Positions 45,679 to 64,000 of a DNA stretch of 64,000 nucleotides are shown one piece after another. The stretch spans positions 122,932 to 186,931 of the forward strand of contig CAYSNH010000001.1 in NCBI GenBank assembly GCA_964432405.1. Reading direction: 5' to 3'. Positions within the stretch are counted from its first letter, which is position 1, and each line of letters begins with the position of its first letter. The notes under the pieces are model-generated. The model was not told the DNA's origin, searched no databases, and saw only the letters and a program-made list of their open reading frames with translations. The DNA is from an uncultured Candidatus Saccharibacteria bacterium (GTDB lineage: Bacteria; Patescibacteriota; Minisyncoccia; UBA6257; UBA11618). The position numbers and the translations under genes are program-made.

Positions 45679-46680
45679 TCAGCCTTTGCTGGCGGTAGCT
45701 CCAAGACCGCCGGGTAGTCTTGATGGAGGAAAGACTTCCTCCATCATTTTTTTACTGACCTCACTTGTGTGAGCCTCAGCCTTGCTCTGGTTAAAAGTGT
45801 CAATCTCATTTTGAGCGCTCTTTCTGCCCAAGGTCGGATCCAGGTTGGGATGGAACTTCCTCCCATTTATGAGCTGAGCATTCTTTTGAAGATAGGCCGC
45901 TTTACGAGCTCTCCCCAAATGACCTTTGGTCATGTTGTCGCGAACCTCTCCAATCATCAGCTCGTCATCTCGGAAGTAGTAGAAATGGTGGCCATGGAAA
46001 GGATTGGCTACCAGCTTGTAACCGCGGTCAATAGGCTGTCGGCCAATCACAAACGATCCAGTAGTTGCTCTTTGCCCGTTGCGCAAAACAAACAGAGCAT
46101 CTTCAACATTTCTGTTGACACCAGTAGCGAGAAAGTTCTCATACTTGATGACAAAAGCTTCCACTGGTTGAAATCGAGGTGCTGTGTCCGGACAGAAACG
46201 GCATTGTTCCATTTCGCCATCAACATGAACTAGGAAGTCCAAGATTTCTTCATCAAGCTGCTCGACGCGAAGCTTGAGCTCGACAGATTCTTTTGAAGTT
46301 CCCATTTCAAGCAGCACTTCTTCAGGGGAGCGTCCTTTGAAAACGGTCTCCCGACAAACCACTTCATGTGGTTTGAAGTGCTTGTCTTCCTCGATTTTTT
46401 TAGCGACGACATCTTGTAGTCGATCGCTAAAAAATTCTCTGATGGGCTTTGTGTGCTGAACACAGTTAAGCCAAACAAAGTCGATGGGGCTCAAAAGAGT
46501 CCCCGGTCCACCAGCCAGCCAATTTCCCACGCGTCTGAGCTCATTGATTGGCAAGAAGCCTTTTCTGGCAGTACCAAACTCATCCAGCCTTTCGTTGTAC
46601 AAGACAAAAGCCTTCTCGGACAGGATACTTGGCCTGTCAATCAATAGATCTTTTTTTGAAGTTGTCGTCATGACAAACAC
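45679..46680 (-). CDS. Hypothetical protein of atypically high G+C, adjacent to tRNA-Ile
   Basis: 333 aa, with no family recognised by eye (…GHHFYYFRDDELMIGEVRDNMTKGH…). Its composition is clearly richer in G+C than flanking genes, and many overlapping spurious ORFs in other frames are consistent with that. Confidence 0.5.
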   Translation of the reverse strand: MFVMTTTSKKDLLIDRPSILSEKAFVLYNERLDEFGTARKGFLPINELRRVGNWLAGGPGTLLSPIDFVWLNCVQHTKPIREFFSDRLQDVVAKKIEEDKHFKPHEVVCRETVFKGRSPEEVLLEMGTSKESVELKLRVEQLDEEILDFLVHVDGEMEQCRFCPDTAPRFQPVEAFVIKYENFLATGVNRNVEDALFVLRNGQRATTGSFVIGRQPIDRGYKLVANPFHGHHFYYFRDDELMIGEVRDNMTKGHLGRARKAAYLQKNAQLINGRKFHPNLDPTLGRKSAQNEIDTFNQSKAEAHTSEVSKKMMEEVFPPSRLPGGLGATASKG

Positions 46681-60423: not shown

Positions 60424-60918
60424 ATGCCTCAATTTTTATCACACATAGTTCCTCAGTGTACGGGAAGATTATTCCCTAACAATATAGAAAGACTGTGTAC
60501 TTTTTGTGACTTAATAAAGATGCTTGATAATATAGTTAAATTTTTAGCTGGTCTGGCTCCCTTTTTAGCTATCATTCTTATAATTTGGGGAGCCTTCCTT
60601 GTCATTACAGCCGGCGGATCTTCTGATAGATTGTCTAGTGGTAAAAAAGTTATTCAAGCTGCTGTCGTTGGTCTAGCCATCGTACTTGGAGCTTGGGTTA
60701 TAGTTAGTACAGTATTTCTCATCATTACTGGCGGCAATAGATTTTATGGCGCTCCATTGCCTTGGCATTCTATTCGCTGCACTCAACTTAACACCCCTTC
60801 TAAACCTCGATCTCAATCACTAGGGCCAGGTAGGCATGGTGATGTTAGTAGCGCACAAGAAGCTAGAGAATTTGGCTATAGTGAAGAGCATATAAGAATG
60901 ATTTATCCGGAAGAATAG
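60424..60918 (+). CDS. VirB2/TrbC-like pilin paralog 1
   Basis: Two hydrophobic helices flank a GGSSDRLSSGKK loop (…IILIIWGAFLVITAGGSS…AAVVGLAIVLGAWVIV…). The likely true start is the ATG at 60520 (MLDNIVKFL…). Confidence 0.45.
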   Translation: MPQFLSHIVPQCTGRLFPNNIERLCTFCDLIKMLDNIVKFLAGLAPFLAIILIIWGAFLVITAGGSSDRLSSGKKVIQAAVVGLAIVLGAWVIVSTVFLIITGGNRFYGAPLPWHSIRCTQLNTPSKPRSQSLGPGRHGDVSSAQEAREFGYSEEHIRMIYPEE

Positions 60919-60952
60919 TCACTTACTATAATAATCTGGTATTATTAATATA

Positions 60953-61378
60953 ATGAAAGTAATCTTACTAAAACTTCTTCAAGTTCAGACAGCTTTTGCT
61001 AGAAATCACTATATGATGATTGATGATTCTGGTGGTGGTCAGATTTCTCCAGTTGGAGCCGGACAGATTTCTCCAGTTGGAGCCGGACAGATTTCTCCAG
61101 TTGGCGGCGGCGATATAGTTTTTACCAGCCCTTTAGGCGGGTATAGTAATCTGCAGCTCATCCTTGATAGAGTCATTAATGGCTTACTTATTTTAGCTAC
61201 CCCAGTAGTGGTTATTATGATTCTTTGGGCTGGTTATCAATTTATAGTATCTGGCGGTAGTCCAGATAAGATAACTAAGGCTCGTCAGACTATTCTTTGG
61301 GCTGCTGTTGGTTATGGTATTTTGCTTCTATCAAGAGGAATTACCTTTATAATTCAACAGTTATTAACAGGATACTAA
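60953..61378 (+). CDS. VirB2/TrbC-like pilin paralog 2 with internal tandem repeat
   Basis: A signal-like N-terminus MKVILLKLLQVQTAFA, the repeat GQISPVGA x3, then …IMILWAGYQFIVSGGSPDKITKARQTILWAAVGYGILLL…. Confidence 0.5.
   Translation: MKVILLKLLQVQTAFARNHYMMIDDSGGGQISPVGAGQISPVGAGQISPVGGGDIVFTSPLGGYSNLQLILDRVINGLLILATPVVVIMILWAGYQFIVSGGSPDKITKARQTILWAAVGYGILLLSRGITFIIQQLLTGY
61037..61108 (+). repeat. Perfect 3 x 24-bp tandem repeat inside pilin paralog 2
   Basis: ggtcagatttctccagttggagcc / ggacagatttctccagttggagcc / ggacagatttctccagttggcggc, in frame, encoding GQISPVGA repeats. Confidence 0.85.
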
Positions 61379-61448
61379 TTGTTGAAACTAAACAATCGGT
61401 TAAAATAGTAATGAAAGGTCGTTAAGGAAATCTTATTGTATTAAATTA

Positions 61449-61811
61449 ATGAACAAATTAATGAAGTGGTCTATCATTGCCACATCTTCCCTTCCTTTGC
61501 TGTCATTTGCTCAGCCTTTTAGATCAGGATATGTAGGTGGTCAGTCTGGACAGTCAGCTTCTCGTATTCAGAGTATTGAGGGTGTTATTGACGCAATGAA
61601 TACAGCTATAGGTTGGATCCAAAATATTCTTTTAATTTTAGCTATTATATTAGTATTATGGGCAGCCTTTCTTTATATCACCTCTGGAGGAGATGAGGGT
61701 AAGGTTGGGGCAGCTAAAAAAGCTTTATTCGCAGCAGCTATCGGAATAGCAATCGTGCTTCTAGCCTATTCCATCACTCCTATTATTCAACAGCTGTTAC
61801 AAGCTAGTTAA
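61449..61811 (+). CDS. VirB2/TrbC-like pilin paralog 3
   Basis: A clear signal peptide MNKLMKWSIIATSSLPLLSFAQP, then …ILLILAIILVLWAAFLYITSGGDEGKVGAAKKALFAAAIGIAIVLLAYSI…. The C-terminal IIQQLL is shared with paralog 2. Confidence 0.5.
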   Translation: MNKLMKWSIIATSSLPLLSFAQPFRSGYVGGQSGQSASRIQSIEGVIDAMNTAIGWIQNILLILAIILVLWAAFLYITSGGDEGKVGAAKKALFAAAIGIAIVLLAYSITPIIQQLLQAS

Positions 61812-61835
61812 AATATTTCTTAACGTAATAAAAAA

Positions 61836-61863
61836 GCCCCTGCTATTAACTAGCAGGGGCTTT
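61836..61863. terminator. Bidirectional rho-independent terminator
   Basis: Hairpin GCCCCTGCTA-ttaac-TAGCAGGGGC, with an A-tract upstream and T-tract downstream on the plus strand, and a strong T-tract on the minus strand. Confidence 0.6.
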
Positions 61864-61890
61864 GTCGTTCACATACCCTCTATTCTCTGT

Positions 61891-62445
61891 TTAGGGCGAT
61901 AGCAGTGTACGAACAGTAGCTGCACCCTCTCCACGCAATTGGAAGGTTGTTAAGGACCCTAACTCCAGGATCTTACCATTTTGTAGATCACTCCACTTTA
62001 ACAGAAAGATCCGATCTCTATCAGGATCAAGTATCTCTACCTGACCATCTGGAGGAGGGACGATCTGTATGTATTGGAATAGTCCTGGTTGCAGCTCAAT
62101 GGGCGAAGACCACTCTTCGTTGTCCAACTTTACTTTCGTAGAAGTTGGCTTTGAAGAACTTCCTACAAACAAGACTTCTTGGTTGAACGGAGTCTTCTCA
62201 GAGGTTTTTTGAATCTGCTGACTCGGACTTTCCGAGGTTTCAAAAAACTCACTCGTTTCCTTCCAGATACCTGGAAGGTAGTTGGCTGCCATCATAAGAC
62301 AGCAGATGCAGAGCATGGCTCCAATAAGCCATTTTGCGCCAGCTTTTACGCCTCCAAGAGGGGTCGTTGTTGCAGTATCGGCCATGACGGCCTCCTTTCC
62401 AATAAAAAAGGACAGTGTTAATTTACTGTCCTTAATATAGCACAT
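61891..62445 (-). CDS. Hypothetical membrane-anchored protein, possibly short NfeD-like partner of the SPFH protein
   Basis: The likely start is ATG at 62385 (MADTATTTPLGG…), giving about 164 aa: a TM (WLIGAMLCICCLMMAA) then a beta-rich C-terminal domain (…DGQVEILDPDRDRIFLLKW…). It sits immediately downstream of the SPFH gene. The NfeD call rests on architecture only. Confidence 0.35.
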   Translation of the reverse strand: MCYIKDSKLTLSFFIGKEAVMADTATTTPLGGVKAGAKWLIGAMLCICCLMMAANYLPGIWKETSEFFETSESPSQQIQKTSEKTPFNQEVLFVGSSSKPTSTKVKLDNEEWSSPIELQPGLFQYIQIVPPPDGQVEILDPDRDRIFLLKWSDLQNGKILELGSLTTFQLRGEGAATVRTLLSP

Positions 62446-62458
62446 TTAGCTATATTTG

Positions 62459-63544
62459 TCAATCAGAGCCAGAGTCAGCAAGATCTGGTCTGAGAATAGT
62501 TGTTGCGGACTCACTACCATCAATCGCCACAGTTTGGTGTCTGCTTTGACCATTGATAGCTAGAGCCAAATTCATTCTTGTAGCTTCAGGAATCTCTTCA
62601 AATCCCTTTAGCCGACTCATTGTTTCTAGGATAGCCGCCGTTTCTTTTCCAGTTCGTTGGCGCTTTTCCATAGTTTTTTGGAATTCTTCAGTCCATTTAA
62701 CGCTGGATAGAGCAAAATGATCGATGTCGATAGCATATCTTTCTTCGACATCAGAGTTTTTATCTTTTTCAACAAGCTCTTTATCAAGACACTCTTTTAT
62801 TTCTCGGTAAAAGAGTTTGTAGAAGGCGATCCTGGATTCTGGAGGGATGCAGCAGGCATCGGTAAGAATCTGGCTGTCGTGATCTTCATTGTACTTTGCA
62901 ACCTTTTGATCAAAAGACGCCTCATCCTCTTTCCTGATTTCTTCGAAATCACGATGAGGAATAATTTCAAGGCATAGGATGCAGTTGATGACCAACTGTA
63001 TGATTTCACGATCTTGTATAAATGCCGTGTAATTGTGACGTCCGGCAATGATACCAATCTCGCTACTAATTAAATCTCCCAAGCCCTGCTTGATAGCGGC
63101 TTCAGACAGCCCCGCGAATTTAGAGGCCCTTTGGTCGTCAACTCTGTATTGAGCGGATCCTTCAAGCTCAGCCTCTATCTCGTCTAGAGTTGTAAAGCTT
63201 TCTTTTATCCCAAGGCTTTTAACAGAGGCATCGTGGATATAGACTCTTTGCCATATCCAACACCAATGAATTCCTTCTCTCACATTCCTGCCAGTTCTTT
63301 CGCCAAAGACTCTGTATTCACCGAAGTGAATAGAGGGTACTTTGATGATCGAGCAGTAAATGATAAAAATCACCATTCCACTCCACCCCATCCAGGGCAT
63401 AGTTATTCCCAGCAGATCACTTCCCGTTTGTGAAGAATGATATGCTAGAGCTCCTAATCCTATCAGAGCGCTAATTAGCAGGACTTTCAAAAAATTGTCC
63501 AACAACCAGGTTGTTAATCGATAATCATCTTCCAAGTTACTCAT
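62459..63544 (-). CDS. SPFH/band-7 (stomatin/prohibitin-like) membrane protein
   Basis: 361 aa; an N-terminal TM hairpin then an SPFH-like core (…VPSIHFGEYRVFGERTGRNVREGIHW…). A strong RBS AAAGGGAGG lies 5 nt upstream of the ATG. Confidence 0.7.
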   Translation of the reverse strand: MSNLEDDYRLTTWLLDNFLKVLLISALIGLGALAYHSSQTGSDLLGITMPWMGWSGMVIFIIYCSIIKVPSIHFGEYRVFGERTGRNVREGIHWCWIWQRVYIHDASVKSLGIKESFTTLDEIEAELEGSAQYRVDDQRASKFAGLSEAAIKQGLGDLISSEIGIIAGRHNYTAFIQDREIIQLVINCILCLEIIPHRDFEEIRKEDEASFDQKVAKYNEDHDSQILTDACCIPPESRIAFYKLFYREIKECLDKELVEKDKNSDVEERYAIDIDHFALSSVKWTEEFQKTMEKRQRTGKETAAILETMSRLKGFEEIPEATRMNLALAINGQSRHQTVAIDGSESATTILRPDLADSGSD

Positions 63545-63669
63545 TTCAACCTCCCTTTCTTTTGGGCTTTCTTTCTTTCCCGTTTTTCTCTACGCTTCTC
63601 CTTTTTCTTTCTCTTCCTTGCCTCTCTTTCCTGGTTCTTCTCTGTTCCATGAGGATTTCGTTTAACCAT
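63541..63669 (-). CDS. Possible 42-aa highly basic ORF within the polypurine leader of the SPFH gene (likely non-coding)
   Basis: MVKRNPHGTEKNQEREARKRKKKEKRREKRERKKAQKKGRLK*; its composition is dictated by the AG-rich tract, and the SPFH RBS lies inside it. Confidence 0.15.
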   Translation of the reverse strand: MVKRNPHGTEKNQEREARKRKKKEKRREKRERKKAQKKGRLK

Positions 63670-63745
63670 CTTTATTCTCCTAAATAAGGATACTTGTCAA
63701 AGTTCTGATTTGTGATATTATATTATAAAAAAAGAAACCCGTAAA

Positions 63746-63829
63746 GGGCGAGTGGCGGAATTGGTAGACGCGATAGGTTTAGGACCTATTGAGCTTACGC
63801 TCGTGGGAGTTCGAGTCTCCCCTCGCCCA
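63746..63829 (+). tRNA. tRNA-Leu (anticodon UAG)
   Basis: GGGCGAGTGGCGGAATTGGTAGACGCGATAGGTTTAGGACCTATTGAGCTTACGCTCGTGGGAGTTCGAGTCTCCCCTCGCCCA; a long variable arm, anticodon loop TTTAGGA. A -35/-10-like TTGTCA…TATTAT lies upstream. Confidence 0.8.
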
Positions 63830-63855
63830 CACTTTTAAATGTTCTATTTTTATCT

Positions 63856-64000
63856 CACTCTTTTTTATCGTGAAAGGTTTTGTGCACTTCTTTTAGTTGC
63901 TTGTTAGTTATGTGAGTATAAACTTGGGTGGTAGAAATGTTGCTGTGACCCAGCATTTCTTGAACAGACCTTAAATCCGCCCCATTCATTAAAAGATCAG
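63856..64000 (-). CDS. Tyrosine recombinase (XerC/XerD/integrase family), C-terminal fragment; continues beyond window
   Basis: The minus strand encodes …[42 protein letters not shown], the conserved C-terminus with the catalytic Tyr (…TQVYTH…). Confidence 0.6.

Follow-up and report, generated by a model that had tools for sequence, protein, structure and literature searches.

Is the stretch of nearly pure purine that precedes an SPFH (Band_7) gene in an uncultured, low-G+C member of the Patescibacteria (candidate phyla radiation [CPR]) a leader or a gene in its own right, and to what kind of membrane module does it belong? The locus lies in 64,000 nucleotides (nt) of contig CAYSNH010000001.1, a stretch that we refer to as the window. 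An earlier note on this DNA had described the purine tract as a leader that encodes a 42-residue open reading frame (ORF) by coincidence, followed by an SPFH gene and an NfeD-like gene in a setting that implied an island. In our analysis, the locus is likely a vertically inherited, fast-evolving three-gene membrane module, and the picture that we consider most likely overall is that of a conserved polybasic mini-gene coupled in translation to a divergent SPFH scaffold, together with a novel partner that is not NfeD. The module genes all lie on the minus strand, and the elements on which the argument turns are as follows.

63541 to 63669, minus strand: the 42-codon ORF (gene 1), encoding the polybasic peptide MVKRNPHGTEKNQEREARKRKKKEKRREKRERKKAQKKGRLK; its TGA stop and the SPFH ATG overlap in the sequence ATGA.
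63549 to 63648, minus strand: the polypurine tract, 89% A+G, which forms the body of the 42-codon ORF.
63675 to 63681, minus strand: the Shine-Dalgarno sequence AGGAGAA of the 42-codon ORF, 5 nt before its ATG, as read from the sequence.
62459 to 63544, minus strand: the SPFH/Band_7 gene (gene 2), 361 amino acids, recognized by Pfam Band_7.
63550 to 63558, minus strand: the Shine-Dalgarno sequence AAAGGGAGG of the SPFH gene, located within the 3′ end of the 42-codon ORF at a distance of 5 nt from the SPFH ATG.
61891 to 62385, minus strand: the gene for a 164-amino-acid single-pass membrane protein (gene 3), with its start at the ATG at 62385 and AAAGGAGG just before it.

The tract that the earlier note had perceived is real and is the most purine-rich 100-nt segment of the 64 kb (runner-up, 75%; mean, 48%; standard deviation, 7%). 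The ORF that it was said to contain does exist, but its peptide is not composed of K, R, and E only: these account for 28 of its 42 residues, the N-terminus reads MVKRNPHGTEKNQ, and the net charge is about +16. The tract is polypurine because the K, R, and E codons AAR, AGR, and GAR consist entirely of purines (R can also be encoded by CGN). The other purine-rich tracts of the window that we checked encode K/E/R-rich protein segments as well, namely, the N-terminus of an L20-like protein, the C-terminus of TopA, and the N-terminus of GyrA. Polypurine tracts in AT-rich genomes should be read first as sequences coding for basic peptides.

We fetched 15 related loci (L001 to L013, L015, and L016) and one distant locus (L014), and 12 of the 15 were examined in detail for the 42-codon ORF. 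The SPFH proteins of L015 and L016 are 99% identical to that of the window. The motif AGGAGAA is invariant in all 12 examined loci and is followed, at equal spacing, by an ORF of 40 to 43 codons whose product shares the N-terminus (M/V)VKRSPHGKE and a K/R-rich tail. Type A ORFs (MVKRSPHGKEQSWERAIRKKKRKEKRKRKRIAKKLNKKGV) start with ATG; type B ORFs start with GTG and have the tail ...RRQNRETKKKDPKETNNE; and type C ORFs, found in L003, L004, and L009, resemble type B with TTA at the start position. The start codon is ATG or GTG in 9 of the 12 loci. The mini-ORF had been called as a gene in L001, L007, and L015, and an exact look-up of four variants of the mini-peptide, including that of the window, found none of them in a collection of 15 billion proteins. 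The loci document an unannotated microprotein family that gene callers found in some contigs only.

Three observations lead us to read the tract as coding. No frame but that of the mini-ORF stays open throughout the types, both of the others being interrupted by stops. Synonymous change is in excess in the mini-ORF frame, where the ratios of synonymous to nonsynonymous codon differences between types are 9:12, 8:15, and 8:7; the remaining frames give values from 1:20 to 3:12. Finally, the N-terminal codons, which are of mixed composition, change at their third positions (GTT/GTC, CGA/CGT, CAT/CAC, and AGC/AGT), and MVKR(S/N)PH is kept. We hold it to be probable, though well short of certain, that the tract is a conserved 42-codon polybasic gene and as such part of the main explanation of the module; the claim of a coincidental ORF does not agree with its conservation in the 12 examined loci or with the frame-specific synonymous excess.

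Certain properties of the tract would also be expected of a non-coding polypurine leader that acts as RNA (an unstructured ribosome standby site or enhancer or a protein-binding site) or as DNA (a triplex-prone purine/pyrimidine mirror), with the ORF being incidental. The purine bias is extreme; an RNA made only of purines cannot fold on itself, none of this kind of folding is predicted here, and such an RNA could favor ribosome loading; purine-rich sequence has few stops in any frame, and a second ORF of 34 codons is open in the window; and type C loci retain the tract without a canonical start. The relatives nevertheless make this explanation very unlikely, as their tracts are only 79 to 82% purine and contain stops in the other two frames, the Shine-Dalgarno sequence and start are conserved in the window and in types A (ATG) and B (GTG), the substitutions are frame specific, the equivalent sequence is unambiguously coding in L014, and there is no Rfam match. 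A riboswitch or other structured leader was also considered and was ruled out by the Rfam search, in which tRNA alone passed and all other matches fell far below the gathering score, and by the folding analysis of the leader RNA, in which no significant fold was found (z = −0.10).

The junction between the mini-ORF and the SPFH gene is conserved in arrangement more than in sequence. In all examined loci, the mini-ORF ends between −4 and +8 nt from the SPFH ATG despite differing local sequence; the window has an ATGA overlap, type A has TGA-A-ATG, and types B and C have ATGAGTGA. A Shine-Dalgarno-like motif precedes the SPFH ATG in every variant (GGGG in type A and GGAG in types B and C), and in the window the near-consensus ribosome-binding site that had been reported for the SPFH gene, AAAGGGAGG, is indeed present. 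With its own Shine-Dalgarno sequence and start, a stop that overlaps or abuts the SPFH start, and conservation in relatives, the mini-ORF has the properties of a coupled small gene, the type C start being the exception. It resembles known translationally coupled upstream small ORFs of the ATGA kind in having a Shine-Dalgarno sequence and ATG, a 4-nt overlap, a downstream Shine-Dalgarno sequence within its 3′ end, and conserved proximity of stop and start. It differs from typical leader peptides, which matter in sequence for sensing alone, in that the peptide sequence itself is apparently constrained and has a fused counterpart in an ortholog.

These same observations raise the possibility that the mini-ORF is translated purely as a regulatory device for the SPFH ribosome-binding site, perhaps with K/R or A-rich codons that slow ribosomes, and that the peptide has no function. 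The position of the stop beside the SPFH start in every variant, though local sequence and frame differ, and the location of the SPFH Shine-Dalgarno sequence inside the mini-ORF would both be accounted for, as would the apparent tolerance in type C, a lineage with an independent, strong SPFH Shine-Dalgarno sequence (AAGGAG), of the loss of a canonical start and, in L004, of a premature stop. We regard this alternative as unlikely but worth keeping in view. MVKRSPHG is conserved through synonymous third-position changes (GTT/GTC, CGA/CGT, and CAT/CAC), which suggests that the amino acids matter; an equivalent of the peptide is fused within the SPFH protein of L014; and the leader is unstructured by the folding analysis described above, with no obvious hairpin masking the Shine-Dalgarno sequence that translation would have to melt.

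Programmed frameshifting, by which the mini-ORF and the SPFH gene would be joined into one polypeptide with a polybasic tail, was examined at the same junctions. A fused form does exist in L014, and the type A mini-ORF ends in ...AAAGGGGTTTGAAATG, a Shine-Dalgarno-like run that directly precedes GTT-TGA; the SPFH gene follows in the +1 frame, and we take the junction to be faintly like the prfB frameshift site. However, relative to the mini-ORF, the frame of the SPFH gene is −1 in the window but +1 in all other loci (distances of 125 and 124 nt), no canonical slippery heptamer (X XXY YYZ) is present at the window junction, and every variant has a normal Shine-Dalgarno sequence and ATG for independent or coupled initiation. 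A frameshift fusion was rejected on the difference in frame relationship between lineages, and we give it practically no credence.

Several points weigh against the reading of the tract as a polybasic gene. We infer coding from a comparative basis of about 40 codons in four sequence types. For K, R, and E, any exchange of A and G at a third position is synonymous by necessity, and the synonymous count of the tail is inflated accordingly; a cleaner coding signal, from the first ~14 codons, which are of mixed composition, is small. In the type C loci, TTA takes the place of the ATG or GTG start, and L004 carries an in-frame TGA. The segments concerned are as follows.

L003, 1685 to 1840: type C.
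L004, 122 to 275: type C, with the in-frame TGA.
L009, 3841 to 4000: type C.

An in-frame GTG that arose by a lineage-specific A-to-G change lies 8 codons upstream in type C and could rescue the ORF, although it has no Shine-Dalgarno sequence. The type C ORF may be decaying or may have been restarted, and, on the basis of these sequences, the peptide seems to be dispensable or to have been lost in at least one sublineage. It should be added that the promoter, terminator, and membrane topology calls presented below are all predictions.

The distant locus L014 offers a second view of the mini-gene. Its SPFH protein is 29% identical to that of the window (E value, 6e-44) and is encoded by an ORF of 445 amino acids; relative to the tRNA-Leu promoter block that both loci have in common (...CTTGACAAG), this ORF and the mini-gene start at equivalent positions. 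The ORF begins with MADQQKNGDQKKDENQKKGRIRKGGKRS... / MADQQKNGDQKKDENQKKGRIRKGGKRSYLFFPFQEIWDEAPETWLAD..., a purine-rich sequence that encodes a polybasic tail in frame with the transmembrane region, and the region TWL(L/A)D followed by the transmembrane segment aligns from residue 12 of the window SPFH protein onward. As in split genes, the start of the mini-ORF aligns with that of a longer ORF relative to a fixed point, the tRNA-Leu promoter region, and in both the mini-ORF and L014 K/R-rich segments stand ahead of TWL(L/A)D and the transmembrane region. The parallel differs from established cases in that there is one fused example, with marginal residue similarity. Pairwise BLASTP of the mini-peptide against the L014 tail gave a 6-residue match, QKKGR[LI], with an E value of 0.052; the fission or fusion link would therefore rest on position and composition in a single fused example, and homology cannot be claimed on the strength of sequence alone, a further point against the reading. 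We nevertheless consider it most likely that the mini-gene is the polybasic tail of an SPFH protein encoded separately, either split off or not yet fused. If so, the locus provides a natural experiment on the function of the polybasic N-terminal tails of SPFH scaffolds.

These observations suggest how the module might be expressed. Gene 1 would specify a cytoplasmic polybasic peptide, and ribosomes that finish the mini-gene would be delivered to the SPFH start; we propose such translational coupling because the SPFH gene starts inside the gene 1 stop (ATGA) and its strong Shine-Dalgarno sequence is embedded in the end of gene 1. The peptide would be made alongside the scaffold, and its probable target would be either the SPFH oligomer or the membrane's anionic inner face. 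Genes 1 and 2 appear to be transcribed from a predicted bidirectional promoter that they share with the divergent tRNA-Leu gene, whereas gene 3 would have its own promoter, overlapping a terminator-like hairpin that would stop SPFH transcripts, as judged from conserved motifs. The predicted signals are as follows.

63717 to 63745, minus strand: promoter-like TTTACG-17-TATAAT from a consensus scan, facing the small ORF and the SPFH gene.
63694 to 63721, plus strand: promoter-like TTGTCA-16-TATTAT with TG from a consensus scan, facing tRNA-Leu.
62434 to 62462, minus strand: internal promoter-like TTGACA-17-TATATT with TG from a consensus scan, agreeing with the consensus at 11 of 12 positions; its −35 element and the SPFH stop codon overlap.
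62401 to 62433, minus strand: hairpin (AAGGACAGT / ACTGTCCTT) and T-run from a terminator scan, terminator- or attenuator-like, between the SPFH gene and the gene downstream.

The two opposed −10 hexamers of the upstream pair overlap by 5 bp with an offset of 1 nt, such that −11A in one promoter is paired with −7T in its counterpart, and vice versa; this geometry matches that of 18-bp bidirectional promoters (PMC10268837). The block from 63694 to 63745 is nearly invariant in L001 to L013, and its minus-strand element reads TTTACA-17-TATAAT in several loci. Within the gap between the SPFH gene and its partner, the conserved series consists of a promoter-like site, a hairpin with a T-run, and a Shine-Dalgarno sequence: the internal promoter-like site is conserved in L001 to L012, and the stem and T-run are retained in all related loci, with a loop that varies. 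Because the predicted start of the internal promoter falls inside the 5′ arm of the hairpin, partner transcripts initiated there would escape termination, whereas SPFH transcripts would carry the whole hairpin.

The identity of gene 2 as an SPFH gene, as the earlier note had it, is clear. Pfam Band_7 (PF01145) matches residues 80 to 305 with an E value of 8.4e-10 and 39.4 bits (cut-off, 23.6), the homologs P0001 to P0007 carry precomputed PF01145 matches, and the 361-amino-acid protein has the α/β fold of SPFH proteins. Its AlphaFold2 model consists of helices at residues 2 to 40 and 44 to 65, then the SPFH core, and then helices at 286 to 312 and 320 to 330. The two N-terminal helices are hydrophobic, and a basic stretch follows the second; by the positive-inside rule, this suggests an N-terminal helical hairpin anchor with a cytoplasmic SPFH domain, a placement that fits a cytoplasmic polybasic tail. 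No NCBIfam subfamily model (HflK, HflC, QmcA, YqiK/flotillin, or stomatin) matched the protein, an SPFH profile found no match among Protein Data Bank (PDB) sequences, and NCBIfam and PADLOC gave no match for any of the three module proteins. A search of genome contigs with the single SPFH protein as the query found no match; with the SPFH alignment as the query, it matched one metagenome-assembled genome (UBA11618, “Patescibacteria group bacterium”). A literature search on SPFH proteins in Patescibacteria found nothing relevant. The arrangement is unlike that of HflK/HflC-FtsH: there is a single SPFH gene rather than a K/C pair, the two N-terminal helices imply a cytoplasmic and not a periplasmic SPFH domain, and ftsH lies on the other strand, past the xer and tRNA genes.

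The gene downstream does encode a small protein with a transmembrane segment and a β domain, as had been noted, and its pairing with the SPFH gene is conserved. Its 164 residues comprise a short N-terminus, one transmembrane helix (residues 17 to 35), a low-complexity S/T/Q/E linker, and a C-terminal β domain at about residues 72 to 161; the AlphaFold2 model shows the domain as a confident 8-stranded β-sandwich, with a cupin/jelly-roll as the best match, and the ~35-residue linker as disordered, with low confidence. In relatives, the N-terminus is lysine rich (MADDKKD...), which suggests a topology with the N-terminus inside and the β domain outside, on the side of the membrane opposite the SPFH domain.

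The assignment of this protein to NfeD did not hold up. The Pfam search returned no NfeD match at an E value of ≤1 for the window protein and none at ≤5 for eight family members (the window protein and seven relatives), and NCBIfam likewise returned no NfeD match. NfeD proteins are described as having about 140 to 150 amino acids, with roughly three hydrophobic stretches at the N-terminus and a domain of all-β structure (PMC2636767), whereas the partner has a single transmembrane helix; the C-terminal domain of PH1510 is described as a five-stranded OB-fold (PMC4208085), in contrast with the partner's 8-stranded cupin-like domain at the end of a long low-complexity linker. Compared to the SPFH-NfeD operons (QmcA-YbbJ, YqiK-YqiJ, FloT/YuaG-YuaF, and PH1511-PH1510), adjacency to an SPFH gene is the sole NfeD trait found here; the locus differs further in having a third, polybasic mini-gene and in the predicted outward placement of the β domain.

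The family of the partner is tiny. Word-indexed searches gave 1 match in one case and 9 clusters in another, and a profile search of 1.84 billion proteins yielded 4 members. Wherever a related locus extends far enough, the gene follows the SPFH gene directly, as it does in L014, where the two abut. Because this adjacency is conserved out to L014, the protein is a genuine lineage-specific partner of SPFH and not NfeD. Small partners of SPFH genes that combine a transmembrane segment with a β domain are not all NfeD, which matters for operon-based annotation of CPR genomes.

The SPFH protein and its partner diverge much faster than their neighbors, as shown by comparisons of the module (61891 to 63544) with L001, L003, and L007. 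When the window is set against L007, amino acid identity reaches 92% for GyrA, 86% for the solute-binding protein, and 66 to 68% for the pilins, compared to 50% for the SPFH protein and 39% for its partner. Recombination has made L001 a mosaic. Identity to L007 is 96 to 100% in the L001 leader, over the 5′ ~400 nt of the SPFH gene, and through most of the partner gene, whereas an SPFH patch of ~850 nt (within L001:3590-5560; window positions 63290 to 62460) is 81 to 94% identical to the window and 45 to 74% identical to L007. L011 has a chimeric leader that combines types B and A. Given the mosaics in L001 and L011, sequence comparison indicates that recombination between diverged alleles occurs at the locus, and it could explain part of the compositional oddity discussed below. 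The fast divergence suggests diversifying selection or allele replacement, and its coincidence with mosaicism in SPFH and partner genes that sit beside GyrA genes 92 to 93% identical hints at the former. A far-reaching proposal would tie these strands together: the mini-gene would be a split SPFH tail that acts in trans as a polybasic microprotein and, with the outward β-sandwich partner, forms an undescribed, diversifying, and recombining SPFH system in episymbiotic Patescibacteria, perhaps tied to the T4SS-pilin-like genes and to cell surface interactions. We think it quite unlikely that the proposal is right.

The flanks of the module bear on whether it was inherited or recently acquired. 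On the tRNA side these are as follows.

63746 to 63830, plus strand: tRNA-Leu (anticodon tag), found by ARAGORN, Rfam tRNA score of 58.2 bits; it points away from the module.
63855 to 64000, minus strand: 3′ end of a tyrosine recombinase gene of the Xer type, the rest of which lies beyond the window; context outside the module.

The earlier note had taken these for a tRNA gene and an integrase fragment. The tRNA-Leu gene stands, but the fragment is an intact gene truncated by the end of the window: it is 100% identical to residues 246 to 292 of a complete 292-amino-acid gene in L015. The best NCBIfam models for this recombinase are XerC, XerD, and XerA (XerA_Arch, 237.8 bits; cut-off, 220), and the gene adjoins ftsH, an arrangement conserved in relatives. 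Where the related contigs are long enough, the gene order is ftsH, xer, a 192-amino-acid ORF in some, tRNA-Leu, the small ORF, SPFH, partner, three pilins, the solute-binding protein, and gyrA; the tRNA-Leu gene is at the equivalent place in L001, L005, L014, and L015, and L014 retains the order tRNA-Leu, SPFH, partner, and pilin.

Recent acquisition as a genomic island, marked by elevated G+C content and flanked by the tRNA gene and integrase, would explain why the SPFH and partner genes have G+C and GC3 (third-position G+C) values 1.8 to 3.1 standard deviations above the window ORF mean and why a tRNA-Leu gene and a tyrosine recombinase gene adjoin the module; the greater divergence of the two genes than of their neighbors, with recombination patches, also shows that allelic exchange at the locus is real. 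Set against this, the module lies between tRNA-Leu and pilin genes in every related contig and in the 29%-identity ortholog, relatives carry the same mild G+C excess, the recombinase is of the Xer type and conserved beside ftsH, and the module is on the 5′ side of the tRNA gene, whereas islands usually integrate at the 3′ side. Recent acquisition is, in our judgment, extremely unlikely. Because the module is conserved at one site, L014 included, the locus is conserved chromosomal synteny and not an insertion. A tRNA-associated island was rejected on the grounds of no variable presence, the Xer-type recombinase, and the wrong side of the tRNA gene, in an analysis that included no search for direct repeats of the tRNA 3′ end.

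The elevation in G+C content that had been claimed for the two larger module genes is real, though mild. The SPFH gene has 42.4% G+C and the 164-amino-acid gene 46.5% (45.4% as the longer, 184-codon ORF that was used for ranking), compared to a mean of 36.4% (standard deviation, 3.4%); they rank 3rd and 2nd, respectively, among the 62 window ORFs. GC3 is 0.40 for the SPFH gene and 0.45 for the 164-amino-acid gene (ORF mean, 0.295). The window ORF with the highest G+C content (47.4%; GC3, 0.485) lies elsewhere, at positions 45679 to 46680 on the minus strand; it encodes 333 amino acids and has no Pfam match.

The 192-amino-acid ORF between xer and tRNA-Leu, which has no Pfam match, is present in most relatives (L001:2964-3542, L003:967-1545, and L005:5137-5715). 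It is missing in the window and in L015, where 25 nt separate the end of xer from the tRNA gene.

The neighbors of the module in the window are genes for GyrA, the solute-binding protein, and three T4SS-pilin-like proteins; taken with the single genome match, they assign the window to an uncultured CPR lineage. The module is separated from the pilin-like genes by the following element.

61833 to 61863, minus strand: G+C-rich 13-bp hairpin and T-run from a terminator scan, between the module and a convergent pilin-like gene that ends at 61811.

The earlier note had called this boundary a bidirectional terminator. A hairpin with a T-run does lie between the convergent genes, and the plus-strand reading, a stem and then TTTGTCGTT, makes action in both directions plausible, but it would be weaker on the plus strand. 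The three tandem T4SS-pilin-like (PF18895) genes occupy positions 60424 to 61811 of the plus strand, convergent with the module. A pilin-like gene is found downstream of the module in the distant L014 as well, and the module and this neighborhood may be functionally linked. The second of the pilin-like genes contains, at 61040 to 61110 on the plus strand, three tandem copies of a 21-nt GGAGAAATCTGTCCGGCTCCAACT-like unit, which encode the repeat GQISPVGA.

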